NCBI GenBank assembly: GCA_900128395.1
Contig: LT649297.1
Coordinates: forward strand, 1 to 42,873
DNA from: Stramenopiles sp. TOSAG23-2
Taxonomy: Eukaryota
Reading direction: 5' to 3'
DNA length: 42,873 bases
How positions within the stretch are numbered: the first letter of the stretch is position 1; the number at the start of each line of letters is the position of its first letter. Both the position numbers and the translations under genes were made by a program. A model generated the notes under the pieces. It made no database searches. It saw nothing but the letters and a program-made list of their open reading frames with translations, and was not told the origin of the DNA. Below, one piece after another: positions 1,401 through 41,403 of the stretch.

Positions 1401-3023
1401 TTAACAACCTGCTCGCGTATTCTGCAACAATCTTCTTCTCCTAACCCTTCTCTGCAATAATGGTGCATGGCCTGATGCAGTGTGTTGCTTTCCTTGTGGC
1501 TTATCTTGTGGCTTTCCTGGTTGCTTTCTATCGTCTTGTGGCTTTCCTGGTTGCTTTCTATCGTTTATCTTGTGGCTTTCCTGGTTGCTTTCTGTCGTTT
1601 TACACTTTTCTGGTTCTGTTTTCTCAATCTTGCATACTGGAAGCTTGTTCGGAACAGGCTTAGTCAAACATTGTTTCTCTGTTTCATTAAACTGTCCCAT
1701 TTCGTCAGGGCAATAGCATACATCAGAAGCATTCAACTCGGGAGCCTCTGCATGATTTCTAGTAACATTCACCAAATCACAAATTGGTTCATCGTAAACA
1801 CCTAAATGATAATCGAAATTAAATTGGCATTTCACTGGAATAGGTTTTATATTTGCTCCGTTTGTTTTGGATTTGCCCGTAATGTTACACACTAAGTCAA
1901 TATCCTTTCCAATTTCATTATCTTTATCCTTACAAGTTACAAGACGATGGCACAATTCATGCTTGAAATATGGTTCAGAATCTGCATCATTAAAAGCTAA
2001 ATCGTTATAACAATTTACGACTAACTGGGTAACATCTTTGTTATTATCTTTCTTCCACCAAGCTCCATCTATCCAATCTTTCCCGTTAACTTGTGGGCAT
2101 GCCACGTCTGTAATATCTGCATTAATAGCAGATGATACTTTTTTCATGTTCTCCACGCTAATGCCACCTAGTTCCTTGTTATTATTTGGAGTGCCAGCAG
2201 TACATCGTCTTCCATATATATTTCCACTCATATCTTGATTTCCCATCTCAAATAAATGTTTTTTGTATGCTCTTTGGGTACATTTGATACAACACGTGGT
2301 GCTTTTAAACGTTTCCTTCACATCGGTGATATGTTTCAAAGCTTTCTTTAAAATCATCTCTTCGTTCAAAAACTTTCTTCTAAACAAATTCATAATTCCT
2401 TTAATTCTTTTTTTGTTTTCACGCACATGCATCTCAATAGATGTCGCATGCGTCTTCATAGAGCTAATATTCTGTTTCATAGAGACAATTGCCTCACTGT
2501 TTCTACGCTCGCGATCGTTAATAGAGCTGACACGATCGTTAATAGAGCTAACAACTTTTGCAAAAGTTTTAAAACCATCAACTACTTCTGATACATCTGC
2601 ATCATCTTCGATGCCTATACCACGAATATTATCTAAGTGATTTTCCGAACAATATTTGTGTTTTGGACCTTTAATAACAATAGCTTGACTATCTTTAGAA
2701 TTTCCAAGAATATTATGCGTGTCACCAACTATTTTAGAAAATAAAGTTACTTTGCATCCTGTTGGAATATCAAAACCTTTTGCAACACTTGATAATATAT
2801 GAAATGTTTGCCCTTTTTTTTTCTCATATTGTTCAAGTTTATCGTTAAAACTACAAGTTTTATATGTTTGTATTTTCCCTTTACACGTCTCATTTTCTAA
2901 CCTTTCAGCAATTTTGTCGAGATCCATGATTGAAGGTTCTAACTGTTGTTGTTGTGCAAAAACACCCGATTTTGCTATGATGAAGATATTACATAATAGT
3001 AATAAAAATAATATACGTACCAT
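1401..3023 (-). CDS. Secreted Cys-rich protein with possible beta/gamma-crystallin-like motif, coiled coil, KQPGKPQD repeats and C-terminal RRRRLLQ..GC tail
   Basis: 540-aa ORF with signal peptide MVRILFLLLLCNIFIIAKSGVFA, a Greek-key-like IPTGCKVTLFS motif, a heptad region, many Cys, and the end LLQRRVRRRRLLQNTRAGC*. Confidence 0.75.
   Translation of the reverse strand: MVRILFLLLLCNIFIIAKSGVFAQQQQLEPSIMDLDKIAERLENETCKGKIQTYKTCSFNDKLEQYEKKKGQTFHILSSVAKGFDIPTGCKVTLFSKIVGDTHNILGNSKDSQAIVIKGPKHKYCSENHLDNIRGIGIEDDADVSEVVDGFKTFAKVVSSINDRVSSINDRERRNSEAIVSMKQNISSMKTHATSIEMHVRENKKRIKGIMNLFRRKFLNEEMILKKALKHITDVKETFKSTTCCIKCTQRAYKKHLFEMGNQDMSGNIYGRRCTAGTPNNNKELGGISVENMKKVSSAINADITDVACPQVNGKDWIDGAWWKKDNNKDVTQLVVNCYNDLAFNDADSEPYFKHELCHRLVTCKDKDNEIGKDIDLVCNITGKSKTNGANIKPIPVKCQFNFDYHLGVYDEPICDLVNVTRNHAEAPELNASDVCYCPDEMGQFNETEKQCLTKPVPNKLPVCKIEKTEPEKCKTTESNQESHKINDRKQPGKPQDDRKQPGKPQDKPQGKQHTASGHAPLLQRRVRRRRLLQNTRAGC
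1494..1600. repeat. Intragenic tandem repeat of about 33-36 bp (DRKQPGKPQD units)
   Basis: TCTTGTGGCTTTCCTGGTTGCTTTCT occurs three times. Confidence 0.85.
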
Positions 3024-3474
3024 CTTTGGTTTGGTGGTTGGTATTTAACATGCGTTGGTATGTTTTTGTTGTTGTGGTTATTGGTGTTGATATATATGTA
3101 TGTCGTTGTTAAGATTTATGTAAATTATTGCTTCTCTATATATAGAATATTAATGCAACAATGCTGGCCATATACATGTAGCTGGATCGCGCCCCTTTTT
3201 TTTTTTTTTTTTCTGATCAACCTCCCATTTTGTTTTTACATAAAATCCAAAAATGGCCAATGTTAATTTGGATGAAAATATCAAGAATATCCGATTTTAT
3301 GATATTATCCTATATAAATATATATTTATTGAATTTATGATATACTAAATATGTACTTATTTGAACCCCACTACATAGAACATAGAATTGTATAATGGTA
3401 TTCGTATACTGTAATGGTATTTAAATGAAATATACTAACAAGTACAAATATATGAAATCTGGTGTCCTGGTTTA

Positions 3475-3880: not shown

Positions 3881-6053
<2,173 letters not shown>

Positions 6054-6382: not shown

Positions 6383-6652
6383 GAAGATGAGGGGATCGAG
6401 TAACTGGTGGTGGATGATGGCACGATGGGCCTATTTTTTGGAGCATTTCGTTTTTTTTTTATGATGTGCTTATTTATATTATATTATTATTAGAATTATA
6501 TATTTATATATATGGATTTTAATCTCTATTTCTTATAATACCTGGCTTACACAAAATTAAAAGACAAAAGACAAAAGAATAATACCTGGAATACAAAGAT
6601 CAAAAAGAGAAAAGAAAAACGTTGAAATATATTATCTTCTATAGATGTGTTT

Positions 6653-9600
6653 ATGTTAAAGATGGCATCTTCCATTGATAATGATAAATTTGAAATTGAA
6701 AAAGACGAAACTGGTGTATTTTTGAATCCATTGTTTGAAAAGAAAGCAATACTTAATAAAAGTGAAAATGATTTGGAAGCAAAAGATGTGATAATTGATG
6801 ATAAGAAGAAAAAAATGAATGGTTGTTACAAAAGACTATGTACGGTAAAAACAAAAAGTGGTACCCGGCGCCGCCGACGTTCGATTTTTAACGAAAAGAT
6901 TGATAATGCCAAATTGAAATATGTTGAAATTCAACGTAGAAATGCTTATTTATTAAAATGGTTGAATGTTTGTTTTACTATATTATTTCAAGTACTATAT
7001 TATTATGATATCTATACAGACGTTGTATTAATTGTCAAGTTGCAGAATACTGGTAATCCGGTATGGACATCAATGATGATTTTCTTCGTCATACTTCCAT
7101 ACGCCGTAACAGCATTTTGTATAGTACAGTATATGAAAAAACTTCACAAGGAATATTTTAATGGTGTTTGTCGAAGTTTAAAAACATACATTAGTATACC
7201 AGTGATTACTCCCTTTTTCGATATCTTAATTCTTTTTTATAGGGTTCCAGCCGTAGGTGGTTGCATAGGCATCGAAGTAATGACATTTATGGCTCAATAC
7301 GAAGGGTTGCGGGTTATATTAGAACAAGTATTCGAATCAGTGCCACAAACATGTCTTCAGCTGTATATATACCTCTATTGTAGTCAACCTGGTGCATGCA
7401 AGTTAAAACAAGATGAAGAAAGTGCTCTTATTACATCTTTGGTAGTATCAGTAACATCCATATTTTATCGGATTGTTAAAACAGTCCTTATTTTAAACAC
7501 AGCTGAATTAAGTTTTCGACAATATGTTAGCCAGTTATTACAAGTTGGTGGGGGGTTACCAATTTCTGCAATAGCTGAAGATAAGTTAGAAAAGTTAGAA
7601 ATTCCTACTTGGATATCTAGACCACAATTGGAGAGACTTGCGCATGTTTTGTCAGATAATGTTTCCGTGAGAGAAATCGAACTAAGTTGGGAGACAATCG
7701 CACACGATGAAATATTTTTGTTATATGATCAATGCCATGACCATCCCGCATTCAAAAAAAACAAAAATTTTATTAAGACCCTTTACAAGCATGAATGTGT
7801 AGATGGTGCAGCTAAAGTTCTTGCTGATTTTGTAGAAATAAAAGACATCAAGCTACTGTATTTTGTAGATGCTAGGAGTTCAGATTTTTTTAAAAATTCT
7901 CGAAGTTCAAAATTAGAGTTTAAATACAAACATATGTCTTCTGATGAAATATTACGCTTGATGATTTTATGCCACAAATGTACACCAACCATTAAAGAGA
8001 TCATAGACAATATAAGCCCAGCACAATTATCAACCTTGTGCAACAATCAAAAAATGTGCAATCGATTGGAAATATACGACTTAACATTGATGAAATATCT
8101 AGATTTAAAAAATTCATTTTTCAAGAAAGGTATTCTTGAAAAGCCACTTAAATTAACATTTGCTTATAAAGCAATGCCAATTTTGGACATTTGCAATTTG
8201 ATTAAATTAAATTTATATTCCGTTAATTTTGTTGAAATTGCCCCTTGCTTAAATGTCTTGAACAAACATGAAATTATACTCCTTGGAGAGTCTTTATCGC
8301 ATAACAAATATATTAAAGAACTGAAAATAAATTTCAAAGATTCAGATACAGAGATTTCCGATCTCATAATATTGTTTCGGAAATATCGCTTATCTGAGAG
8401 TCTGATACTCAAATGGTTATGCGAAGGCATTGGGAAAGAATGGATTAAAATCGAGAATTTATCGACAAAATCCATTTGTAATTTGATGGAATGGCTTCGT
8501 TACGATGGAAGTATGCTACCATTCCGTTATCGAAACGTGGATTTTTCCCAGCATAACATAGTTAATAATTCCATCCCTGAACTTGTAAAGAGTATAAATC
8601 GTACGGCGGCACTGTGGTCCGATAATTTGATCGAATTAAGATTTGATTGGTCACAACTAGGCTTAGAAAATATACTATTGTTGGCCACTACAAATCATGC
8701 TAAGTTGAAGGGTATTGAGCAGCACGAAATAGATGGTTCAAAGTGGGATTTAGTGAAAATTAAATCTGTTTTAATGCAGTTAAAAGACTATAATGTCAAA
8801 GTGGATTCTTCTTTTGATTTTAGTATTAAATTTGATTGGGGATGCATGAAGATAACAACCGTCGCGGAGATTGTTGCAGTGAATTGTTTCGAAGTTCGTG
8901 TGCTAGATTTACGTCAAGTCAACTTACAGAATTGCACAACAGCTGAAATTATATCACTCTCCAAGTCATTGAAACTCAATAGTGGACTTTGTAAAATATT
9001 TATTTCTTGGAAAACTGTGCCAGCCAAGTATATACAAATTTTGTCTACTTCTAAACATAAAGCACTTGTTATATCAATAAACCATCTTTCACTAGAGCAA
9101 AAAATTGATATTCTAGCTTTGAACATTAGCTTGCCTGAGTTCGAATTAGATCTAACCAACGATCAGTTTGATTCTAAAATGGCGCATATCGATCAATTAT
9201 CTAAAGCGTTAACAATCAATACTTCTTTACATTATTTAAAATTGGATTGGCTAAAATTTTCAATTTTAGACATTGTGAAGCTTTTAGATACTCATCATCA
9301 GTCATTAAAAGAGATCAATATATCCCACTGTGAAGTGACTGTTGATATTATCATGAAAATTACCAACATGGAAGACGTTTGCCGTCTTATCGTACCTTGG
9401 CAGGAGAAATTATCGAATGAAGTATGTAAGATCTTACGGTGCTTTTCATTGATTGATGTCAATGTAACGACTCCATCCGGAAAACTATTCATCAAATTAA
9501 GCGACGATGAAATGCCAACTGTGGAACAGTTTCTCATGGTAACACCTGGATTAAAGTGGAGTAAATTTTTACTCCTGGCATATAAACAAGGCATTGATTT

Positions 9601-11002
9601 CTTTAATATCGTAAAACTTAAAATAAATAAGAATCATAAATTTGATGTCACGGGGGCAGTAAATGCAATAACATTGTATAAGGATAAAAAACTAGTACAA
9701 CACCTAACAACAATAAGTGTTAATTTGCTATCCACCTCTATTGGTGTAGGGCAGTCCTTAGAGGATTTGTATCTGGATGAATTTGATACCGATGCCCCAT
9801 GGATTCGACAAAGAGAGGCAGACAACCAACGACGTTGGGCATTATTATGTAAATGTGAACCTGGACAGAAAATCGCAGACTTGGAAAAAGAAGAAGAATT
9901 TAATACATTGAAGGAGACTATAAATGCCCTTCAAAACAATATAGAAATTTTGAATAATTTGTCTACACCGGAAGAGGGAGCCGAAGAATTTGTAAAGTTC
10001 GTTATGAATACCCACGAACCGCTCTCTGCAAACTCAGGTAATATTTGGAAAGGATTTAAAGAAGACGATGGTGTGTCAAAAATAGAAAGAGGTAGAATTA
10101 AAATGAAAAAAAAATACCCGAATACGTATTTTATTTGTGTTTGTTTTGCTTTTGGAATTACTTTTTGTGGTCTACTTGTGGTTCTTATTGCTTCCATTTA
10201 CCTTTTAGCCTGGTTTATTTACTATATGTATTTTTTAGTTTGTGGGAATATCCATTTCGGCATCATGTTTTTGGTACAAGAAAAAGAATGCAGTTATTTG
10301 CTTGAATGTATAGATGAAATGGATACTACTCATTATAAAGTCAATGTGTCTCAAACAAATGGAACATATATCAATTCGTATAGTAGACAAGGCAGCTCTA
10401 TTGATGATTTTAATTGTTCCTCACTGGCTTCTGCGATTAATTCATATGCCAGGGTGAGTATTTTCGGCACTTTTTTTGCATGTTGTGTGTCTTCTTGTCT
10501 TTTGGTAGGTGTCGAATTAGCTGACACTAATTCCATATATTCGTTTCAAGATTTAGTCTGTAGATTAGCCTTTTTGTGTTTACCTATGGCTTTACTATTT
10601 GGTTTTAACCAATTGCTGTTGTATCTATGTGAAAATAGTTATCGAGCAGCAAAGGTTTATGTTGATTATTATAACAATTACAGTAGTATCTATCAATCTC
10701 TTTGGTGTGTTCGTGATGCTGGCTGGTATTATGATGTATTGAAAAATGCACAGATTGTTCTTCGTTGGCAACTAGGCGTCCTTTTATTTATATATGCATG
10801 GTTGTTTTTATTGTTTTTGTCCGCTTGTTTTGGTATCAAAAAAAACAAAGAAAAAAGGCGCTTAGAAGAGGAACGCAAAGCTGCTGAAGAGAAGGTCAAG
10901 AATGCGAGAATACAAATAAAAAGAGAACAAGAATCAGAAAAGGAGAAGCATCTACAAAAGATAACAGAGGAAACAACCATTTTTTTTACTGAGATACAAT
11001 AA
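6653..11002 (+). CDS. Large membrane protein: N-terminal XK-related (scramblase family) domain, degenerate RI-type LRR region, G-protein-gamma-like (GGL) segment, about 4 C-terminal TM helices and coiled coil
   Basis: XK hallmarks YYYDIYTDVVL and LEQVFESVPQTCLQLYIY; LRR-like units (LSDNVSVREIELSW, LSHNKYIKELKINF, LTINTSLHYLKLDW); a GGL-like segment at about 9908-10051. First ATG is at 6653 (alternative 6662). Confidence 0.75.
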   Translation: MLKMASSIDNDKFEIEKDETGVFLNPLFEKKAILNKSENDLEAKDVIIDDKKKKMNGCYKRLCTVKTKSGTRRRRRSIFNEKIDNAKLKYVEIQRRNAYLLKWLNVCFTILFQVLYYYDIYTDVVLIVKLQNTGNPVWTSMMIFFVILPYAVTAFCIVQYMKKLHKEYFNGVCRSLKTYISIPVITPFFDILILFYRVPAVGGCIGIEVMTFMAQYEGLRVILEQVFESVPQTCLQLYIYLYCSQPGACKLKQDEESALITSLVVSVTSIFYRIVKTVLILNTAELSFRQYVSQLLQVGGGLPISAIAEDKLEKLEIPTWISRPQLERLAHVLSDNVSVREIELSWETIAHDEIFLLYDQCHDHPAFKKNKNFIKTLYKHECVDGAAKVLADFVEIKDIKLLYFVDARSSDFFKNSRSSKLEFKYKHMSSDEILRLMILCHKCTPTIKEIIDNISPAQLSTLCNNQKMCNRLEIYDLTLMKYLDLKNSFFKKGILEKPLKLTFAYKAMPILDICNLIKLNLYSVNFVEIAPCLNVLNKHEIILLGESLSHNKYIKELKINFKDSDTEISDLIILFRKYRLSESLILKWLCEGIGKEWIKIENLSTKSICNLMEWLRYDGSMLPFRYRNVDFSQHNIVNNSIPELVKSINRTAALWSDNLIELRFDWSQLGLENILLLATTNHAKLKGIEQHEIDGSKWDLVKIKSVLMQLKDYNVKVDSSFDFSIKFDWGCMKITTVAEIVAVNCFEVRVLDLRQVNLQNCTTAEIISLSKSLKLNSGLCKIFISWKTVPAKYIQILSTSKHKALVISINHLSLEQKIDILALNISLPEFELDLTNDQFDSKMAHIDQLSKALTINTSLHYLKLDWLKFSILDIVKLLDTHHQSLKEINISHCEVTVDIIMKITNMEDVCRLIVPWQEKLSNEVCKILRCFSLIDVNVTTPSGKLFIKLSDDEMPTVEQFLMVTPGLKWSKFLLLAYKQGIDFFNIVKLKINKNHKFDVTGAVNAITLYKDKKLVQHLTTISVNLLSTSIGVGQSLEDLYLDEFDTDAPWIRQREADNQRRWALLCKCEPGQKIADLEKEEEFNTLKETINALQNNIEILNNLSTPEEGAEEFVKFVMNTHEPLSANSGNIWKGFKEDDGVSKIERGRIKMKKKYPNTYFICVCFAFGITFCGLLVVLIASIYLLAWFIYYMYFLVCGNIHFGIMFLVQEKECSYLLECIDEMDTTHYKVNVSQTNGTYINSYSRQGSSIDDFNCSSLASAINSYARVSIFGTFFACCVSSCLLVGVELADTNSIYSFQDLVCRLAFLCLPMALLFGFNQLLLYLCENSYRAAKVYVDYYNNYSSIYQSLWCVRDAGWYYDVLKNAQIVLRWQLGVLLFIYAWLFLLFLSACFGIKKNKEKRRLEEERKAAEEKVKNARIQIKREQESEKEKHLQKITEETTIFFTEIQ

Positions 11003-11041
11003 GAGAACATAAAAAATAATTTATAAAAATATTAATTAGAG

Positions 11042-11079
11042 AAGTGTAAAAATATTATAACTTAGATTTTAACCATCAT
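11042..11079 (+). repeat. Dispersed conserved intergenic motif, copy 2
   Basis: AAGTGTAAAAATATTATAACTTAGATTTTAACCATCAT is the reverse complement of 1323-1360 at 37/38. Confidence 0.85.
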
Positions 11080-11251
11080 CTAAAATATTTATAATATATG
11101 CATATCATATTTGTTTTTACACGCCATTTGTATTTAACACACTTATTTTTATTTTTTCTTCTATTTTTTTCGAACAAAAATAACTATAAAGACGCGTGTG
11201 TGTATACATATTACATTACATTACACGTAAAAACCACAAAATTTAAATACA

Positions 11252-13327
11252 CTACCTTCCACGCCGCATCGTTGCTTTTTGCCTAGCTTTAATTGTTTTA
11301 CTTTCCTCATCATCACTACCAGTATAATCATCAAAACGACAAACAGGCGCATTAAACTTTGTTAATGCTTTTGGACCTAGATGAGCACCATTATTTTCAT
11401 TAATTGCTTGACGAGCGACAGAACAATTTCGTCTTTGATGTTTACATATTTGTCGAAATTGTGGAAATGTCACTGCAGTTCGTAAACTATCCTCAATTTG
11501 CCCCATCATTAATAATACTTCTTTTTTTGAAAAATTCAATGGCAATTGGAATAATATAGCATATAGACTAGTTAAATCGTGTAATTTTTCATGGTTTTCA
11601 TAAAGTTTAAAAATTCTTGTACATTCAGGATTTTGAAAGAAAACTTCCAATTGACGAGCAATTCTATCCTTTGCTTGTGCAGCTTCGCGTCGATCTAAAA
11701 TTGCACCTGCAAATCTACGTTTCAATTTCTTAGTTGCTTCTGAAAACGTACGCCTATTGAAAAATGTCCATGAAAATTCTTCATAATTAATTACCCCATC
11801 GCCATCTGGATCAAATCGTTCATATGCTGCTAAACATTCATGTGGTGTTAATGAATCATCGAAACTACGCATACATTGAACAAATTCTTCTTTATCGACA
11901 ACACCATTGCCATCGATATCAAACTCTTTAAACGCTCGTTTTAAATCAAATTTGTCATCTACCATAGAAATTTCACGAATTTTTGCCATACAAATATCTG
12001 CAGCGCGTTCCAAACGTACACTATCTTCGGGTAAAGTCCCTTGTGATTGACACCATGCACTTAATATACGTGCTTGTAACATATCCGTCGATGCACCAAG
12101 TTTAATCGTAGGCTTTTCCACTAATGACTCACCGCCATTTAACACACCTTGACCACTTTGGCTTAATGAATCTAAATTCAATGGTGGCAAATCACCACTC
12201 ATGGATCCCATCCGAATGCTACCACTACTACGACTACCTTTCAATGATCCCATTGATTTTGTATTTCCTGGTAATTTACGTCGCCTATTTGGTCTTTTAA
12301 TTGTTAACTCTTTTTCTTTTTGCTTTGCCTCTTCTTCTTCTTCCTCCTTTGTTTTCGTCTCCATTTTTTTCTTTTTCTTTATATTTGGCAATGATTGCGA
12401 TTTACCTAAATTGGAATTCTTCCCTTGCGCTGCTTTTTTCAATGCACGACGATTGTTAAATACCCATGCAAATTCTTGATATTCAATATCACCACCACCA
12501 TCTGGATCAAATCGTGTGAACACTAAATCCATCTCTTGTTGATTCAATTCGATTCCAATCTCTCGTAAGACCATATTTAATTCATGTGGTTCAATCGTGC
12601 CATCTGCATTGACATCAAACTTTTCAAATGCAGTTTTTAAATCGAAATTTTTCTTTTTCTTTGCCATCTCTCGTATTTTATCCATCACTTCATCCACAGC
12701 AGCTTCTAAACCTTGCCTTTTTCGTAACTCTGATTTTTCCTTTGTTGCTTTTACCCATATATGCATGTGTTTTCCGGTTCGATGGTTCCGATGATGTTTC
12801 CATTTTCCACTTGGTGGTTTTGCTTTTTTCGCTTCTTTTTCATCTTTTTTCTTTTGTTTATGATGTGCATGCATCCTAATGTATGCTTTTATGTAAAATT
12901 TAAAATCGTGATAATTTGTTGTCTCGCCATGATCCATAAAATAATCCCGTGCTATGGTAACTTCCCGTCTCGTTAAATTCATATCCAACATATGTAAAAT
13001 AGCTGTTAATGAAGTTTTATTTGCTGGCCTCCACTCTGGTGTTTTCTTTGCTTTAGGATATGTTGCAGGATATTTATTCCCTTCCGTAAATCGAACAAAT
13101 AAACCTTTCACGTTAAAATCACGTAATGCTAAACGTAAATGTTTCATTAAACCTTTTAATTTTGTTTGTGTTTTTCTACGTTTATTCCAATGTTCCAACC
13201 ATTCCTCTGATTTACCTTTATTTGCTTTTTCTAAAAATTCATCTTTTTCTGGTAAAACTGATTTCCTAACAACGGCCCATTTTTCCTGCGCACGCAACTT
13301 CGCCTCTCTCCGTTCAAACGAATCCAT
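11252..13327 (-). CDS. Multi-EF-hand calcium-binding protein (two duplicated EF-hand pairs)
   Basis: EF loops DVNADGTIEPHE, DPDGGGDIEYQE, DIDGNGVVDKEE and DPDGDGVINYEE; each pair is flanked by KIRE..FDLK.AF and F(N/F)NRR. Confidence 0.88.
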   Translation of the reverse strand: MDSFERREAKLRAQEKWAVVRKSVLPEKDEFLEKANKGKSEEWLEHWNKRRKTQTKLKGLMKHLRLALRDFNVKGLFVRFTEGNKYPATYPKAKKTPEWRPANKTSLTAILHMLDMNLTRREVTIARDYFMDHGETTNYHDFKFYIKAYIRMHAHHKQKKKDEKEAKKAKPPSGKWKHHRNHRTGKHMHIWVKATKEKSELRKRQGLEAAVDEVMDKIREMAKKKKNFDLKTAFEKFDVNADGTIEPHELNMVLREIGIELNQQEMDLVFTRFDPDGGGDIEYQEFAWVFNNRRALKKAAQGKNSNLGKSQSLPNIKKKKKMETKTKEEEEEEAKQKEKELTIKRPNRRRKLPGNTKSMGSLKGSRSSGSIRMGSMSGDLPPLNLDSLSQSGQGVLNGGESLVEKPTIKLGASTDMLQARILSAWCQSQGTLPEDSVRLERAADICMAKIREISMVDDKFDLKRAFKEFDIDGNGVVDKEEFVQCMRSFDDSLTPHECLAAYERFDPDGDGVINYEEFSWTFFNRRTFSEATKKLKRRFAGAILDRREAAQAKDRIARQLEVFFQNPECTRIFKLYENHEKLHDLTSLYAILFQLPLNFSKKEVLLMMGQIEDSLRTAVTFPQFRQICKHQRRNCSVARQAINENNGAHLGPKALTKFNAPVCRFDDYTGSDDEESKTIKARQKATMRRGR

Positions 13328-16763: not shown

Positions 16764-17258
16764 AAAAAAGAAAGAAAGAGAGAGAGATAGAGAGATAGAG
16801 AGATCTGGTATATTTTTCTCATATAATGTATATAAAATTTAATGAAAAATATAATTATTATCTCATCATAATCATCATACCAGGGCATACTGGCATATTA
16901 TACGCACATCATCATATACATGTATATGTATTATACCTATTGCTGCTTTATATACCGATCTTCTTACGGAAGGAGAAAAAAAATCCAAGGTGTCATACTT
17001 TTTTAAAAATATTATAAGTATGAATTTAAGGTATACTAACATTCCAATCAATGATGTGATTTTTGGCAAAAAAGAAGAACAACAAGATATTGTTTCAGCA
17101 CACAACATACCATAACAATTATATATTTCAATATAAACAAAATACTTGTACAGAGATGAAAATAGAAAATCTTGTTCATAAATAATACAAACACATACAC
17201 ACGCACATACATTCACACATTCATACATCTATATATATATATAGTTAGAAGACACAAT

Positions 17259-18134
17259 ATGATAAAATTGCTCATATTTTCAGCAACACTTCTTGTCGTT
17301 GCTGAAGCATCAAAATGGGGACAACAACAAAGATCAAATAATAGGAGACTAATCACATGGAAGTCAGCACAGAAACAGTTTTCAAAGCGTCAAAAAGACT
17401 GGAACGATGGTTATGCATGGAAATTTGATACGGATGAAGAAATGGTTGAAGGTGCACCAGTCTCTGCATACCAACACGTTACTGCTCGGTGTAATGACCA
17501 ATATCCAAAGTATTCAGTACCGTGGGCTACTTGTATATCAAATGGTTTTCGTAAAGTTAGCCATTATAATGATGCTGCAAGATTTGATATTGATGAAGAT
17601 GCTGTTCCGTTTGACATTGCTGCTCCACAAAGATTTAGGGGTGTACCAAAAGAACGATGCTTTTGCTCCAACGGTGGTGATGGTTCAGGTGCTTGCACCA
17701 CTGTCAAATATTGTAACTCAAGATCAGACGGTGGATATCGTTGTTCTCCAGTTGATAATGGATGCAATGACATTTATCCAGGACAAACTCAAAGTTTTGA
17801 TGAAGAACCTTCTCGCAGAAAATGTGACAAAAGATCAAGAATCGCTTTCTTGGCAAGGTTACCAATGCCATTGAAACATCGATTGTACCTGTTAAAACAA
17901 ATGCAACCACAATGTTCTCAAATGAGTTTTGATCGTTATTGTAATGGATGTTCACATATCATGGACAATAGTAAATTTGATCGATGTATGCTTGATACAA
18001 ATATTCCTGAAACACCGAAAGAGAATGAAATTTGCACAAAAGAAATATTTGCGTCGGCAGCGTTTTGCCTCAAACAAAAGGTTAAAACTAGGTTCAATCG
18101 TTGGTGCTTTGCGAAAGGACCTTATATTCCATAA
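17259..18134 (+). CDS. Secreted Cys-rich protein of unknown function
   Basis: ATG at 17259 gives signal peptide MIKLLIFSATLLVVAEA, followed by an NRRL motif and many spaced cysteines. Confidence 0.75.
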   Translation: MIKLLIFSATLLVVAEASKWGQQQRSNNRRLITWKSAQKQFSKRQKDWNDGYAWKFDTDEEMVEGAPVSAYQHVTARCNDQYPKYSVPWATCISNGFRKVSHYNDAARFDIDEDAVPFDIAAPQRFRGVPKERCFCSNGGDGSGACTTVKYCNSRSDGGYRCSPVDNGCNDIYPGQTQSFDEEPSRRKCDKRSRIAFLARLPMPLKHRLYLLKQMQPQCSQMSFDRYCNGCSHIMDNSKFDRCMLDTNIPETPKENEICTKEIFASAAFCLKQKVKTRFNRWCFAKGPYIP

Positions 18135-23000: not shown

Positions 23001-23591
23001 TTAAATCATTTCAACATGATGCGGTAACACTTGATTTGAACGCGTATTGCCACCATCAGGAAGATTTTCCAATATTTCTTTCATATGCTTCTTTGTGCGA
23101 TCTGTATCTTTTTGCTCCAGACTGCTCAACATTTTCTGATATTCTTTTTCCGTTAATTGACCATCGTTGTCCTCATCAAATCCTGCTATTAAAGTGGCCA
23201 TTTGTCCTTTGGTCACAACAGCATCAAAACGATCTTTAACCATCGCTTGCATTTCTTTAATGTCTAAAGTACCATTGCCATCCAAATCAGCAGTTACAAA
23301 ATATTTATGTTTCATAAGGTCAGTATGACTTCCAATGCGAATGGCATGGGCTTCACAATAAGTATGGCAACACTTACAAGCAAAAATGCTTTTATTTTTA
23401 CCACAACCCCATTTTTCCGCCCAACAACAAGTATTTTGTTTACGACAGCAACATGGGCAATAAAAGCAACAAGCAACCCAACAACATGGTGTTAAGATTA
23501 TGATCCATAAAATAATGGCAAGTAACATAGCTGGAAAGTTCCACCCAAATTGAAATGCCATACCGATTAAACAACATAAAATTGGTGACAT
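23001..23591 (-). CDS. Membrane-anchored Cys-string EF-hand protein
   Basis: Hydrophobic N-terminus, Cys string PCCWVACCFYCPCCC, and EF loops DLDGNGTLDIKE and DEDNDGQLTEKE. Confidence 0.8.
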   Translation of the reverse strand: MSPILCCLIGMAFQFGWNFPAMLLAIILWIIILTPCCWVACCFYCPCCCRKQNTCCWAEKWGCGKNKSIFACKCCHTYCEAHAIRIGSHTDLMKHKYFVTADLDGNGTLDIKEMQAMVKDRFDAVVTKGQMATLIAGFDEDNDGQLTEKEYQKMLSSLEQKDTDRTKKHMKEILENLPDGGNTRSNQVLPHHVEMI

Positions 23592-23827
23592 TTCTGATTC
23601 AAATTTAAAAGAAGCAAAGAAATGTTTAGCTGGTATGGATGTAAATACAATCCAGGAAATATCGGAAGGTGTTGCAGTGTTTTATGCTTGGGGCAGTTCA
23701 ATCATCATGTCGTTGGAAGAGTAAAACAAGAGAAATTCGTGTTGCGTTTTATATATATTATAGGTATCATAAAAAAATGTTTATTTTTATGATATTGTTG
23801 TTGTCAGCCTGGTTTACACACATCACG

Positions 23828-32712: not shown

Positions 32713-33222
32713 ATACAAGTAGTAAAAAAAAATTAATTTCAACATCATGTGCACTGTTCATGTGTTATCTTCTCTGGTTATATGCTGTTATGCTCTACTA
32801 CAATACCTTAATTTTAACTTTATCAAGACTTTCTTAAAGTATAACATCTAATATACTTATGGGATCATAAAAGAGCTATTAATTATATTCCCAATATAGG
32901 AAAGGACCGGAAAGGAGTGTGCCCATCGGTTTTACCACATACAGGATTACGTTGTGTATAAAAATGCTAAAAATAGTCAAATAAACTTATACCTTCAAAA
33001 AATCCAATAGTACATAGTGTTAATAAAAATAGAGGATAAGAAATATATATACCAAGAAATGAATAATTATAATAGGAAATATACATTTTGTCATATATAA
33101 TACGTAGAAAATAATATATTCAAATATATACATTTTTTTCATAGAGCATTCGATCCCTGTTGTCCTCAATATATATATATATACATACATACATATACAC
33201 ATAGTGAATCTCTTCAATCACC

Positions 33223-34731
33223 ATGGGTTGTACACAATCAAATGAAAAAATATCACCACAAGCTAAAAATGGTGCAGATTCTATTGTCAACAGGGCCCAA
33301 ACAGGAAATGAAGCAAGTACTATGTTGCAACATTTAATACAAGAACATAGGAAGGAAAAAGTTGATTCTGTTTACGACATCAATTGGGACGATGGCCAAG
33401 CATTAGGCTCTGGCGCGACAAGCACCGTACGTATTGCCATCAATAAAACAACAAAAGAAAAATTTGCATTAAAAACTATTGAGTTACATCGTTTACCACC
33501 TTCTGTTGTCCAGTCGTTATATGAGGAAGTAAATATTATGCGTGCCTTGGATCATCCAAATATTATTAAAATCATTGAAACCTTTGTTGATTTCAAACGA
33601 TTGTACATCATCATGGAGTGTTGCACTGGCGGGGAATTGTTTGACAAGCTGTACGACCAACCTGGTGCAAAATTTACAGAAAAAAAAGCCTTGGAGCTTG
33701 CAATAAAGATGTGTAGTGCATTAAATTATTTGCATCAAAATAAAATTATTCACCGTGATTTGAAGTTGGAAAATTTTATTTTTACAACGAAAGAAGACGA
33801 TGGTGAAGTGAAATTGATTGATTTTGGCTTGTCCAAAGCGTATTTGGAAGGGGAACACATGCGTAAAGTTGCTGGTACAAGTTATTACATGGCACCAGAA
33901 GTATTGCGTGGGGATTATTCCGAAGAAGCTGATATGTGGAGTTTTGGAGTTGTTATGTTTATGTTACTCAGTGGTCGTTGTCCATTTGGTGGACATACTG
34001 ATGAGCAAATCCAAGATAATGTTTTACGTGGTAAATATGTTTTCAAACAAGCTGCATGGGATGGTGTATCCAATGAAGCAAAAGATTTTATTAAGAAATT
34101 ATTAGTACAAGATTATAAAAAACGCATGACTGCAGCGGAAGCATTAGATCATGCATGGATGCGTGGTGAATCAGTAGGAGGGTTAGAACATCATTTATCA
34201 GAGGAAGGGGAAGATCATTTAGTACATCATATGGCAGAATATCGTAAATATTCCGATCTGAAACGTGCAGCGTTGCTTGCTATTAGTTTCACACTTGGTG
34301 AAAAAGATCTGCAAACTTTACGTGATGCATTCCAAGAAATTGATAAAGATCATACGGGTGTCATATCGCATACAGAATTCAATGAGATTTTGCATAAACA
34401 TGGCATTATGGATGATGCTGAATGTAATCGTATTTTTGATTCCATTGATCAAGATCATCATGGTGTGATTAAATATACAGAATTTATCGCTGCATGTGTA
34501 GATGAAAGCGTTTATTTGGAAGATAAACGTGTTGTTGAAGCATTTAATCGATTAGATGTCGACCATACAGGTAAAATAACAAAAGATAATTTAAAAAGTT
34601 TATTAGGTGACGATGTCACTAGTGAAGCATTAGATCGTATGATAGCAGAAGCAGATTTCCATCATGATGGTATGATTGATTTAGATGAATTTAGGAGAAT
34701 GATGAAAGGAGAGAAAGCTCCTGAAGCATGA
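33223..34731 (+). CDS. CDPK: Calcium-dependent protein kinase with N-terminal myristoylation/palmitoylation motif
   Basis: MGCTQS N-terminus; GSGATS, ALK, HRDLKLEN, DFG and APE motifs; junction LKRAAL; four EF hands. Confidence 0.96.
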   Translation: MGCTQSNEKISPQAKNGADSIVNRAQTGNEASTMLQHLIQEHRKEKVDSVYDINWDDGQALGSGATSTVRIAINKTTKEKFALKTIELHRLPPSVVQSLYEEVNIMRALDHPNIIKIIETFVDFKRLYIIMECCTGGELFDKLYDQPGAKFTEKKALELAIKMCSALNYLHQNKIIHRDLKLENFIFTTKEDDGEVKLIDFGLSKAYLEGEHMRKVAGTSYYMAPEVLRGDYSEEADMWSFGVVMFMLLSGRCPFGGHTDEQIQDNVLRGKYVFKQAAWDGVSNEAKDFIKKLLVQDYKKRMTAAEALDHAWMRGESVGGLEHHLSEEGEDHLVHHMAEYRKYSDLKRAALLAISFTLGEKDLQTLRDAFQEIDKDHTGVISHTEFNEILHKHGIMDDAECNRIFDSIDQDHHGVIKYTEFIAACVDESVYLEDKRVVEAFNRLDVDHTGKITKDNLKSLLGDDVTSEALDRMIAEADFHHDGMIDLDEFRRMMKGEKAPEA

Positions 34732-37776: not shown

Positions 37777-38850
37777 TTTTATATATTTAATATTATATTT
37801 TTGTAAAAATAAATAAATATATATGATAGTATAAAAATGTATTGGATATATATCGCAACTCTTTTAAGAAAATCACTGAACGAATGAATTTCTAAATCAA
37901 GATATATGATAATAAAAGAATGTTGAAACTATTACACAATGTATTGATAGCATTGTGGGGAAGAAACAATCAAGCCTCATCAATTTTCTTACAGGAAATG
38001 TGTCCCCCGTTTTTTATTTGATTCTTCATTTTTTTATTGATGTGAATCGATTTATTATTTTTTTTGTGTTTTTTTATGTTGGTTTCTCCTATCAAAAATA
38101 TATTAGTCTAATAGCTATACTTTATATGGCCCGTTCTAGAAGAATTGAACCCACGTTATAAATATATCGTTTTCTAAAATGCCAATTTTATGTTTCATAT
38201 ATTTGTAAAAATAGCAAATATCCGAAAATATAGAAACAATTATGAATATTTCCCCCATAGTGAATAGTGTTAAGTGTTCAGTGTACAGTTTAAGTGTACA
38301 GTTTTGACCGGTTTAGCGAATAGTATTTTAATTTAGATTTTTTAGATTTCTTTTTTTTTGGGGCACGTGGCGGTGTACAGACGACTAGTTCCCGGTAAGC
38401 GATTCGAAACAATTTTTGTATTTTTGTGCTAAATACTGTATGCATAAGCCCCGCGCCGCGCATGGTGCGTGATATACTGTCTAGAATAATATATAGGATC
38501 AATTATATACGGTGTAGCATAGTTGACAACGTGGTAATTTTGACAGCATTTTTCCACACGCACACACGCACACGTGCAATTAATATGCACCTTACTTTTA
38601 TTATGCAAGCGTCTATATACATATATACTCGATACTGTCCACATAATATATATTTGTAAAGTTAAACGCGTGAAAATTATTACTCTCGTCTATCAATACC
38701 ACTTATAATCCTAACGTTAAAGTCTCGAATACAAAATTAAAACAGACAATAATAACAACAATACCCATAGTAGTAGTAGTAATAGTAGTAGTAATAAATA
38801 ATATACGTGTTGTTAATAGACCAATAGATAATAGACCAATAGATAATAAT

Positions 38851-41403
38851 ATGAAAAATAATGACAACAACAGTGAGGAACTTTTGCAAAAAGAAAGATC
38901 TAATTCAATAATTAAAAGAATAAGTAATGGATCTATAAATTCACAATCGGATCACGAACCATTCAATGTTGAGGATATATTTGAGATCGATGGTCCAGAT
39001 ATTTTAAGCGATTTCGATATAACAGATAATTTCGAAGAAATTTTTGAAAATAACAACGTGAATAATAATGAGAAGAACATAAAAGAAGATTCAAAAAATA
39101 CTTCCCCAACATTTTCCTCCTCCTCAAGCTCCTCAAGAAGCTCATCAACCAAACCATCATTAAACATTGGTAAAAAACAAATCAAACGGCTGGATAAAAC
39201 CATTCGTACAAAATTTTTGACAGAACAAGATGCGACTATTTTTCGTGTGACAGCGTTACATGAAACCGAACTTCACCACCCGCATGTGTGGCAGTTATTT
39301 TACGATGAGTTAAAGATTATTGGTTTTGTGAAGCATGATAATAATAAAATTCCATATGAAAAATTGGAATCATTATCTATGACTAGTTTTGTTACAAGTA
39401 ATGGCATTTATCATGATGTTCTAGGACATTTACCAGTAAAATATGCAGCTCTGTTAGCTATGTTTCGTTTCATATGTTATGTTTGTTATTGTAGTAATGA
39501 TCATGCTAAAAATAACCAAGTGAATTCAGATGGAGTATCTATATTAAATGAAAAATGCAGAGAAAATATTATTATTTTTTTCCGTAAATATATAGTTCCT
39601 GTGAAGCCACTCCAACGAGAAGAGGAGATACAGATAAACGAAGTTACTAATACAAAAAAAATGCGTATAAATTTAAGTGCAGATTTCAACACAAAAACGT
39701 GGCGACCAACTATACATACATCTGTTGCTTTACCACTATTAAATTCGTGCAAAACCGTTGCTAAAGGTAGCGAAAAATTATTTTTGGATGTACCACAAAG
39801 CTCTTATATGTCGGAAAATAAATATTTTATTTTTGGAGACTCAAAACAATCAATCAAAAAGGTAGGAAAATCTACCAGCAACAGCCAGGACAGTAGTAGT
39901 TCTAGTGGTGGGAAAAAACGCAACAACAATAACAACATCAATAGTAATAATAATATCGTGACGAAGACAACGAATATGCCAAACGATACATTAGCAAAGT
40001 ATAGATGGGAGAATGATAGCAAAAAAAATAAACTTTCTATAGCATGGATTCGTATTATAATGATTCAACAACTTCATCGCTCTGCTGAGTTGTGTGCTCT
40101 CTTTTCGGCAAAACAATTATATGGTAATGATGGAAACTTATTTGAGGAACAATGCCACTCTATAAACACATTTATTAAAAACGAACTAGCTGCGAATGTT
40201 ACGAAGAAAAGAAAACGACTGAATGAAAAATCTACTACGACACTTAAAAAAACCATAGGAACAAGGTTTGAAGGATTGAAATCTAGTTTGAAAAAGTTCT
40301 TTGGTATTTCTACTAATAGTGGTGATACTACAGCTGGCAACATTGAAAATATTGAAATTGACATAGAAACAATAGATAAGGAGAAAGAAAATATCACTCC
40401 ATCACCTTCCAACTTGATGGATAGTAGTAATTCTGACAAAAATGTTAACGGAAAATTATTGGCAACTACCATGTTGAAGGATTTTGTACCATCTGCTAAT
40501 ATGCAAAATGAAGTTATCCCATCACCACCTTCACTTTGTAAATTTATATTTGATATAGCCATTTGGGAAGTTTCTTTTTGCATAATTGTTTATCTTGATA
40601 CTGTAATACAAACACACATATATAAAAGTAAGATCAAAGTGGAAGGGTTTGATAGATTCATACAGTTTGAAGATAAATACATATTGGTTCAATATTTTCT
40701 TGAGGTCATAACATGGCTTTCGTTTTTAATTTTAATATGTAACAAATATTATGCGATTCATTACAAGGAAAAATCATCTTATGAATCCACCCGCAACATA
40801 TGCCTGTACATTATATCAATGTACTCTATAATTGCGATATGTTTTGCAACATATTTCCTGTATACAAGGTCCGGGCCATGTGTACAGTATCCATGTTATG
40901 CACCAAAATCGTTGAAGGGTTCATGTAAACCTGTTCCAAGAGAAATGCTTCCTATGACTCCACCGGGATACATATCGCATTGTTATGCATTCAACAGTAC
41001 AAAATGGCCTATTCTTTGCGGTATGAAATATTGCCATGCTGCATGGGATGATTGTGATACGAATGGTGGAGCAGACTATATGTACTTAGGGTTTCCAATA
41101 GAAGAAAAATTTGATGGATTAAACAATGATTTTTTCGATAGGGAAATAATAGGATCTTGTGAAAAATTCTATTCCACGTTTTTGTTTATGTTTGGATATT
41201 TTAGAATACTTACGAATTCCATATCCGCTGTAGGTGCTTTGAACCGTCTTTATTTTTACCCACATGGAAAAAATATTACTGATGTCTTGAAAGAAATACA
41301 ATTTGAGTGGGGATATTCAAGAAAAATTTTGATGGTATCTGCCGTCTTTGCTTTTATTTCCTGGATGTGGGTTTTTTTGAATTATGTTTTAACTCCCCGA
41401 TAG
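38851..41403 (+). CDS. Unknown multi-pass membrane protein with long soluble N-terminus and Cys-rich loop
   Basis: 850-aa ORF with about 5 hydrophobic helices in the last 300 aa and a loop GPCVQYPC..C..C..CGMKYC..DDC. Confidence 0.7.
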   Translation: MKNNDNNSEELLQKERSNSIIKRISNGSINSQSDHEPFNVEDIFEIDGPDILSDFDITDNFEEIFENNNVNNNEKNIKEDSKNTSPTFSSSSSSSRSSSTKPSLNIGKKQIKRLDKTIRTKFLTEQDATIFRVTALHETELHHPHVWQLFYDELKIIGFVKHDNNKIPYEKLESLSMTSFVTSNGIYHDVLGHLPVKYAALLAMFRFICYVCYCSNDHAKNNQVNSDGVSILNEKCRENIIIFFRKYIVPVKPLQREEEIQINEVTNTKKMRINLSADFNTKTWRPTIHTSVALPLLNSCKTVAKGSEKLFLDVPQSSYMSENKYFIFGDSKQSIKKVGKSTSNSQDSSSSSGGKKRNNNNNINSNNNIVTKTTNMPNDTLAKYRWENDSKKNKLSIAWIRIIMIQQLHRSAELCALFSAKQLYGNDGNLFEEQCHSINTFIKNELAANVTKKRKRLNEKSTTTLKKTIGTRFEGLKSSLKKFFGISTNSGDTTAGNIENIEIDIETIDKEKENITPSPSNLMDSSNSDKNVNGKLLATTMLKDFVPSANMQNEVIPSPPSLCKFIFDIAIWEVSFCIIVYLDTVIQTHIYKSKIKVEGFDRFIQFEDKYILVQYFLEVITWLSFLILICNKYYAIHYKEKSSYESTRNICLYIISMYSIIAICFATYFLYTRSGPCVQYPCYAPKSLKGSCKPVPREMLPMTPPGYISHCYAFNSTKWPILCGMKYCHAAWDDCDTNGGADYMYLGFPIEEKFDGLNNDFFDREIIGSCEKFYSTFLFMFGYFRILTNSISAVGALNRLYFYPHGKNITDVLKEIQFEWGYSRKILMVSAVFAFISWMWVFLNYVLTPR

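Follow-up and report, generated by a model that had tools for sequence, protein, structure and literature searches.

The window, the whole stretch of 42,873 nucleotides that we analysed from a marine single-celled eukaryote, carries on its forward strand an uninterrupted open reading frame (6656..11002, with the stop codon at 11000-11002) that encodes a protein of 1448 residues, P0001. The frame is also given from 6626, and candidate starts are the ATG codons at 6653 or 6662. Nucleotides 9890-10051 of the plus strand are in frame with it and code for residues 1079-1132. An earlier reading of this DNA, made from the sequence only, had picked out a 47-residue peptide as a G-gamma-like (GGL) domain; it corresponds to residues 1085-1131, at window positions 9908-10048. 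Along P0001 the parts follow one another in this order:

6656..11002, plus strand: whole open frame (P0001), collinear with the 1402-residue orthologue P0002
6971..7480, plus strand: XK-related N-terminal half, residues 106-275, by match to PF09815
7523..9775, plus strand: some 750 residues in the middle of the protein (290-1040), probably an RNI/NLR-type LRR alpha/beta solenoid on a low-confidence model
9776..9889, plus strand: helical and acidic stretch, residues 1041-1078, conserved in P0002 and without an assigned family
9890..10048, plus strand: predicted GGL domain, residues 1079-1131, by homology to G-gamma
10049..10123, plus strand: linker, residues 1132-1156, poorly conserved in the comparison with P0002, ending in a polybasic juxtamembrane cluster
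10124..10273, plus strand: hydrophobic hairpin TM-A/TM-B, residues 1157-1206, hydropathy peak 2.83
10448..10843, plus strand: three more hydrophobic segments by hydropathy, residues 1265-1291, 1296-1325 and 1366-1396
10844..10999, plus strand: charged helical C-terminal tail, residues 1397-1448, opening with a K/R cluster (sequence and AF2 model)

The orthologue P0002 is 70% identical to P0001 and has the same order of parts. Identity between the two reaches 90% in the XK-related half, 33 of 38 residues in the helical stretch 1041-1078 and 44 of 53 (83%) in the GGL domain, and stands at 18 of 50 in TM-A/B and 6 of 25 (24%) in the linker. P0002 was the one protein returned by a homologue search with residues 1000-1448, and the only one found by a profile search among longer proteins, which is weak evidence of absence; metagenome scans gave no further orthologue. 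The homologue, phmmer and profile searches thus found just two proteins of such architecture. Among the 16 open reading frames of the window that were scanned, none contains a WD40 repeat or encodes G-beta.

Integrity of the gene

The fusion could be an artefact of the gene model or the assembly, if the G-gamma part is really a small gene of its own next to an XK/LRR gene. Two observations are in keeping with such an artefact. The RNA contigs available for this region come from metatranscriptomes with thin cover, none of them spans the whole gene, and about 6900-7900 and 8900-9240 are uncovered in the four runs and hence uninformative. In addition, a public fragment, P0003, has an abnormal end just upstream of the GGL domain; this end is an out-of-frame reading at the fragment's own start (window position 9132), a case of contig wrap-around. 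Against the artefact, the frame runs on through 1448 codons, with no internal stop, no methionine where the GGL domain begins and neither stop nor CaaX box behind it, and the same continuous arrangement recurs in the independent, 70%-identical P0002. The RNA contigs aligned to 6400-11400 (four runs) show no splice joints and are collinear with the window over 9701-9956 and 9966-10162. One of them (9779-9956) joins the upstream region to the first GGL helix with 0 differences, and another (9966-10162) joins the second GGL helix to TM-A with 1 difference. The open frame, the orthologue and the RNA contigs largely refute the artefact, which we consider highly improbable. Seawater RNA libraries from 13 studies contain near-identical sequence, at low word shares, and the four runs aligned here are among them.

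Relation of the internal segment to G-gamma subunits

A phmmer search of residues 1000-1448 against 1.84 billion representative proteins gave two matches, one of them a 100%-identical fragment of P0001 itself. The sole other match was P0004, a protein of 74 residues ending in a CaaX box, which aligns through residues 9-52 to residues 1084-1127 of P0001 (query 85-128) at 50% identity (E 1.9e-4). Six further full-length proteins, of 73-74 residues, are related to P0004, and the C-termini of P0004-P0010 read CC-x-I-S/A. The Pfam G-gamma profile PF00631 aligns residues 6-73 of P0004 to its positions 3-68 of 69 (E 6.2e-6) with 26.6 bits, slightly below the Pfam cut-off of 27.1, and matches all seven full-length members over their full length (best E 9.3e-7); a precomputed PF00631 label is present on seven of the nine proteins among the matches listed. 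Sequence searches of the PDB with P0004, with the G-gamma profile and with the profile plus the window segment returned no G-gamma chain at E<=10, so that it is Pfam that ties these proteins to structurally characterised G-gamma. The matches that these PDB searches did return were designed coils, keratin and prefoldin.

An HMM of the seven small CaaX-ended G-gamma proteins and no others gives the window frame 48.4 bits (E 3.3e-14 at a bias of 0.3) and P0002 47.3 bits, while the next best of the 709 targets has E 7.7; the targets comprised all stop-to-stop frames of at least 30 residues in the six frames of the window together with P0002, searched with filters off. In an hhalign comparison, the two fusion segments align to the G-gamma alignment with a probability of 98.9% (E 2.6e-17) over 52 columns, through NIW/NPW. 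The GGL core is identical to each of the G-gammas at 23-25 of 48 aligned positions, and a block of 13 residues in the second, non-coiled helix is identical to that of P0008 and P0009. The layout of the segment is a first helix, a turn, a second helix with TPEEGAEEFVKFV, then EPL and NIW, and hydrophobic segments begin 25 residues past NIW.

The central claim of the sequence-only reading, a G-gamma-like domain embedded in a large protein, is thus borne out by phmmer, the seven-sequence HMM and hhalign by way of these intermediates. The motifs that it named (EPL, NIW and the S..E.GA..F helix) can all be seen in the segment, and predicted membrane helices take the place that the CaaX box has in canonical G-gamma. 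The first of its proposed checks, a search of the segment with PF00631, came out negative. Neither P0001, a 103-residue piece nor the 54-residue segment matches PF00631 at E<=10 in Pfam, where the HMMER filters discard most matches above about 0.1. Membership in the family is therefore transitive, through divergent and closely related G-gammas. We take the miss to be a limit of one profile's sensitivity, and no defining biological feature. On these sequence comparisons, the segment is almost certainly homologous to G-gamma.

A generic coiled coil that resembles G-gamma by chance would fit the weak Pfam matches of the segment to coiled-coil families (Prefoldin, E 0.012-0.019) and the designed coils among the PDB matches of the G-gamma profiles. 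This reading is refuted by the low bias and the gap to the next target in the HMM search and by the hhalign result, and the identical 13-residue block lies outside the coiled helix; we give such a coincidence practically no weight. The AF2 model of residues 1040-1448 is poor (pLDDT 64, pTM 0.39, residues 1119-1155 below 50); in it the GGL domain is a helix (model residues 40-61), a short turn and a second helix (66-79), at pLDDT 57-70, with coil below 50 after them. The conserved stretch upstream, 1041-1078, has a predicted helix at model residues 9-27. For this poor model neither Foldseek nor VIA listed a G-gamma chain, and the protein atlas held no usable match for the GGL part.

Descent from G-gamma would also hold if the domain were an exapted remnant that has lost G-beta binding and now sits between the LRR part and the C-terminal membrane bundle as a conserved helical linker next to the membrane, as an intramolecular element or as a dimerisation element. 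Several departures from the free proteins speak for such a remnant. The segment has NIW where the free G-gammas have NPW, so that the proline is replaced; the EPL-to-NIW spacing is shorter by 4 residues than in P0008-P0010 and by 5 than in P0004-P0007; and the first eight G-gamma positions are left out of the alignment. PF00631 gives no direct match, the well-kept helix upstream could pack on the GGL helices, and only two members of the lineage are known. The pattern of conservation argues the other way. It falls mainly on the core positions at which the free G-gammas do not vary: 19 of these 33 are kept in the window, among them E-P from EPF/EPL and both N and W from NPW. In addition, the domain is far better kept between the orthologues than the adjacent linker. 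Moreover, G-gamma alone does not fold, G-gamma and GGL domains by themselves are normally insoluble, and every characterised GGL domain known to us, whether in canonical G-gamma, R7-RGS proteins or plant type-C G-gamma, pairs with G-beta. We regard the remnant as the unlikely outcome, and lean modestly towards G-beta binding having been retained.

XK-related, LRR-like and membrane parts

The N-terminal half of P0001 matches PF09815 at E 3.4e-7 with 30 bits, above the curated cut-off of 24.8 (37.5 bits for the piece alone), and P0002 is also above the cut-off. The XK-related fold consists of two structurally related repeats, with eight TM helices and two partly inserted helices in all. Like the XK-related proteins XKR8, XKR9, XKR4 and XK, P0001 matches positions 1-175 of the 337-position model; unlike them, it leaves the second half of PF09815 unmatched and has about 870 residues inserted after the first half. 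We infer TM1 to TM4 in the matched part, with a partly inserted helix between TM2 and TM3. Two TM segments, then a hairpin-like one, a hydrophilic TM and a last TM make up a pattern that fits repeat 1 of XKR9 as described in PMC8298096.

The three hydrophobic segments at 10448..10843, or all five C-terminal ones, may form the second repeat of an XK fold. Scanned alone in Pfam, the C-terminal membrane piece has no XK match. Foldseek found nothing at E<=0.001 for the AF2 model of residues 1040-1448 (pLDDT 64), and VIA returned generic helical bundles for the same model, with XKR4 (Z 9.1, rank 34) and XKR9 (Z 8.8, rank 43) within the noise; neither search speaks for or against such a repeat. Atlas clusters labelled Tweety were set aside, their scores for this part (0.77-0.78) being below the tool's chance level. 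The C-terminal tail is modelled as a long helix with pLDDT of at least 90.

For the middle region, Pfam offers LRR_6 only at E 0.22-0.47, and a count of the LRR core motif shows no enrichment, with 4 occurrences where shuffled sequences average 4.9. The AF2 model of the region, of low confidence (pLDDT 49), shows alternating strand-helix elements, and this model gave 70 PDB matches in Foldseek at E<=0.001 (best E 2.1e-7, TM-scores 0.2-0.4). Those among the matches listed are mainly NLR-family proteins, ribonuclease inhibitor, the F-box LRR proteins COI1 and FBXL17, and CARMIL. On this model the region is probably an alpha/beta solenoid with LRRs of the ribonuclease-inhibitor/NLR kind. The XK/LRR label that the sequence-only reading gave to this protein therefore stands in its XK part, with PF09815 above cut-off over the first half only. 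Its LRR part has no support from Pfam or from the motif count, and what speaks for it are the fold matches of a model of low confidence. The RNI/NLR LRRs that the middle region resembles are cytosolic proteins.

The orientation of these parts can be approached from the XK topology and from charge. According to PMC8298096, the XKR9 repeat comprises four TM helices and one partly inserted helix, and both termini and the long loops of XKR9 are intracellular. An XKR9-like first repeat would accordingly place the region behind the first repeat of P0001 in the cytosol. K/R clusters border the membrane on the proposed cytosolic sides, and the linker has seven K+R in its last 20 residues. By XK topology and charge distribution, the GGL and LRR parts would both face the cytosol. 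This count takes the hydrophilic TM3 and the unpredicted TM1 as membrane-spanning; were either not to span, the GGL domain would face outward.

A proposed membrane-integral G-gamma

The explanation that we favour, and consider probable as a whole, is that the lineage's own G-gamma was copied into a multi-pass membrane protein as the GGL domain, which docks G-beta there. The domain would sit against the inner face of the membrane on the cytosolic side, with a transmembrane helix standing in for the farnesylated CaaX cysteine of free G-gamma, and would form an obligate dimer with the G-beta propeller, as characterised G-gamma and GGL domains do. P0001 would then be a membrane-integral G-gamma that keeps G-beta, and via G-beta also G-alpha-GDP, docked, and the docking platform would be the XK-like, possibly lipid-scrambling, membrane domain. 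A coupling of G-protein signalling to scrambling or to LRR sensing is speculative. One form of it, in which G-beta/G-alpha is held by the GGL domain on an XK and NLR-like LRR protein, and in which their dissociation or a cytosolic ligand sensed by the LRR part switches scrambling or another XK-type activity, strikes us as possible but doubtful.

Canonical prenylated G-gamma is a protein of about 70-100 residues with a C-terminal CaaX box. P0001 shares with it (PF00631) the homologous helix-turn-helix core, the EP[FL] and N-x-W motifs in register and a membrane-proximal end. It differs in that its GGL domain is internal to 1448 residues, without a methionine or CaaX box of its own, and is followed by a TM hairpin after a basic linker of 25 residues. 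R7-RGS proteins, which get to membranes via partner proteins, likewise carry a CaaX-less G-gamma-like domain inside a large multidomain protein. Unlike them, P0001 has no RGS, DEP or DHEX domain (Pfam, E<=10), is itself integral to the membrane and has a GGL domain that is closest to the lineage's own G-gamma. The R7 family (RGS6/7/9/11), the subject of PMC8611064, PMC6310461 and, with reference to Snow et al. 1998, PMC3727952, pairs with G-beta-5. Plant type-C G-gamma (AGG3, GS3, DEP1/qPE9-1) has a GGL domain followed by a putative TM segment, lacks a prenyl anchor and dimerises with the G-beta RGB1, as stated in excerpts of PMC6357212. In P0001, too, a transmembrane segment after the GGL domain replaces the prenyl anchor. 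The plant type-C GGL domain is N-terminal and is followed by one putative TM and a Cys-rich tail, whereas that of P0001 is internal, behind about 1080 residues (XK-like plus LRR-like), and is followed by five hydrophobic segments.

To our knowledge, few architectures with a G-gamma-like domain inside a larger protein have been described, namely animal R7-RGS proteins and plant type-C G-gamma, and the XK family has been studied almost solely in animals. R7-RGS proteins and plant type-C G-gamma each altered the understanding of G-beta-gamma signalling. Among the titles listed by a search of the main texts of openly accessible papers, none is on a GGL domain fused to an XK-related protein. The same literature contains no paper with both 'GGL domain' and 'scramblase', and we met in it no case in which heterotrimeric G-protein signalling is coupled directly and physically to the lipid asymmetry of membranes. 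The embedded GGL domain is of a known kind. The XK/LRR-like architecture around it was not met in print: the lineage's own G-gamma has been copied to a place between a probable NLR-like LRR solenoid and a TM anchor, and the N-terminal half of the protein is a member of the XK scramblase family. If the domain binds G-beta, P0001 would be a third, independent case of a prenyl anchor replaced by protein fusion and a natural example in which G-beta-gamma is tethered to a candidate effector, and through it a connection of G-protein signalling with lipid scrambling could be tested in marine protists. If the switching described above also holds, heterotrimeric G-protein signalling would be coupled physically and directly to membrane lipid asymmetry.

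A single gene around the G-gamma-like segment

The G-gamma-like (GGL) segment at window 9890–10051 (+) lies in the reading frame of one long ORF that runs from stop to stop over 6626–11002 (+) and, translated from 6656, gives the 1448-residue protein P0001. The segment codes for residues 1079–1132, and the peptide quoted in the sequence-only reading is residues 1085–1131. The frame is open throughout, with no Met ahead of the GGL and neither a stop nor a CaaX box after it. P0002 (1402 residues, 70% identical), the only homologue found, has the same order of parts.

We compared window 6400–11400 with four marine RNA-library runs, whose metatranscriptome contigs cover the gene in part and show that its sequence occurs in RNA libraries, which does not prove transcription. 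The contigs are short and collinear, with zero joints in the coding region. Those at 9701–9900 and 9779–9956 have no differences to the window, and one at 9966–10162, with a single difference, joins GGL helix 2 to the first hydrophobic segment after the GGL. Directly downstream of the stop, at AT-rich 11039–11180, contig depth reaches about 1340 with many loose ends; this most likely reflects low-complexity sequence common to other organisms, not expression of the P0001 gene.

A public 249-residue fragment, P0003, is 100% identical to P0001 residues 826–1069 (window about 9131–9868); its first codon is a TTG taken as Met. We rejected it as an isoform, as its last five residues match an out-of-frame reading at window 9132, its own start; the abnormal end looks like a short contig wrapping onto its own start, an assembly artefact.

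Homology to the free G-gammas of the lineage

The Pfam G-gamma model PF00631, the check proposed in the sequence-only reading, gave no match at E ≤ 10 to P0001, to a 103-aa piece or to the 54-aa segment. A phmmer search with P0001 residues 1000–1448 against 1.84 billion representative proteins returned two matches, namely P0003, which is a fragment of P0001 itself, and P0004, a free G-gamma of 74 residues (E 1.9e-4, 50% identity) whose alignment falls exactly over the segment. At its C-terminus P0004 has a CaaX-type box with a second Cys ahead of it, and its residues 6–73 align with PF00631 end to end (profile positions 3–68 of 69; E 6.2e-6), scoring 26.6 bits, slightly below the 27.1-bit cut-off. 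It has eight relatives, six of full length (73–74 aa, same CaaX-type ending) and two truncated, and PF00631 matches all seven full-length G-gammas (best E 9.3e-7). Three PDB sequence searches yielded no G-gamma chain, so that only the Pfam model connects P0004 and its relatives to the textbook G-gamma.

An HMM made from the seven free G-gammas alone and run unfiltered on 709 targets scored the window ORF at 48.4 bits (E 3.3e-14) and P0002 at 47.3 bits, with nothing else better than E 7.7. Profile–profile comparison of the two fusion segments (P0001 and P0002) with the seven G-gammas gave a probability of 98.9% (E 2.6e-17) over 52 columns, extending through NIW/NPW. Core identity is 23–25 of 48 aligned positions, and the 13-residue block TPEEGAEEFVKFV is identical in two of the seven. 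Counted against G-gamma identity are the Ile that replaces Pro of NPW, a shortening by 4–5 residues ahead of NIW, and the first eight G-gamma positions, which are unaligned. The homology thus bears out the earlier claim of an embedded GGL-like domain, and we conclude that the segment, though divergent, is a genuine GGL domain that comes from the lineage's own G-gamma.

Architecture, topology and constraint of the host protein

Parts of P0001, with identity to P0002
Residues 106–275: XK-related half, Pfam match above cut-off to model positions 1–175 of 337 only; 153/170, 90%
Residues about 290–1040: middle region, strand–helix alternation in a poor AF2 model (pLDDT 49)
Helix ahead of the GGL: 33/38, 87%
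Residues 1079–1131 (window 9890–10048, +): GGL; 44/53, 83%
Directly after the GGL: basic linker, weakly conserved; 6/25, 24%
Residues 1157–1206: hydrophobic hairpin (TM-A/B), by hydropathy; 18/50, 36%
Residues 1265–1291, 1296–1325 and 1366–1396: three more hydrophobic segments, by hydropathy
C-terminus, after the fifth hydrophobic segment: charged helical tail
Whole protein: 70%

The host had been called an XK/LRR membrane protein. The XK assignment stands for the N-terminal half, whose hydropathy and sequence also fit the first XKR9 repeat, described in PMC8298096 as a pair of TM helices followed by a partly inserted helix, a hydrophilic TM and one further TM. The LRR assignment, unsupported by Pfam or motif count on their own, is probable from the model: Foldseek gave 70 matches at E ≤ 0.001 (best 2.1e-7; TM-scores low), mainly to RNI-type LRRs of NLR-family, ribonuclease inhibitor, F-box LRR and CARMIL proteins. 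The five hydrophobic segments after the GGL may be a second XK repeat. Between the last two lies a Tyr/Trp-rich loop (10631–10750, residues 1326–1365) with about 90% identity to residues 1321–1360 of P0002. It is better conserved than the helices on either side, and neither a family nor a function turned up for it.

K/R clusters lie ahead of TM1, after TM2, ahead of TM-A, where 20 residues include 7 K/R, and behind the last segment, where 20 include 9. According to PMC8298096, XKR9 has its two termini and its long loops inside the cell; by analogy, the region after the first repeat, LRR-like part and GGL, would be cytosolic. This topology is weakest at TM1 and TM3, which do not reach the hydropathy threshold; the same source reports this for XKR9 TM3.

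The seven free G-gammas share 33 invariant core positions, of which the segment keeps 19, and the GGL is under selection at the same positions as free G-gamma. The main rival reading makes it a remnant without G-beta binding, now a structural linker. What the comparisons demonstrate is homology to G-gamma, a membrane-adjoining position and, as the sequence-only reading had it, membrane helices, behind the basic linker, in place of the lipid anchor. Like other G-gamma and GGL domains, the GGL of P0001 would bind a G-beta propeller, and the protein would then be an integral-membrane G-gamma keeping G-beta-gamma on an XK-like membrane domain. More speculatively, G-protein state or an LRR ligand would control XK-type lipid activity.

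Embedded GGL domains are already known from R7-RGS proteins (PMC8611064, PMC6310461, PMC3727952), and in plant type-C G-gamma a putative TM comes after the GGL (PMC6357212). P0001 differs from both in partners and in order: XK half, LRR-like solenoid, internal GGL, multi-pass anchor. In the openly accessible literature searched, the XK/LRR-like/GGL fusion is not described and no paper has "GGL domain" and "scramblase" together. The arrangement has been seen in two sequences so far.

Genes around the fusion

The window is AT-rich (G+C 30–38%). Its genes mark it as eukaryotic; among them are Kelch-BTB, IPP-2/WW, an M13 peptidase, an EF-hand kinase and a DEAD-box helicase that carries a long stretch of Asn. 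The DEAD/DEAH-box helicase ORF (4077–6053, +) has about 58 unbroken Asn and a poly-Thr run in its N-terminal part; some AT-rich protists typically have homopolymer tracts as extreme as these. An ORF open at the window 5′ end (1–1071, +) pairs a weak LRR_4 match (26.3 bits, cut-off 27) with a Notch LNR domain (22.6 bits, cut-off 21.2), an unusual combination for a protist. No Pfam family was matched at E ≤ 0.001 in the long ORFs 1401–3044 (−; 547 aa), 17166–18134 (+; 322 aa) and 38674–41403 (+; 909 aa). Genes for Ca2+ signalling are abundant in this neighbourhood: the ORF at 33208–34731 (+) has a CDPK-type architecture, in which EF-hand pairs come after a protein kinase, and EF-hand proteins lie at 11252–13327 (−) and 23001–23681 (−).
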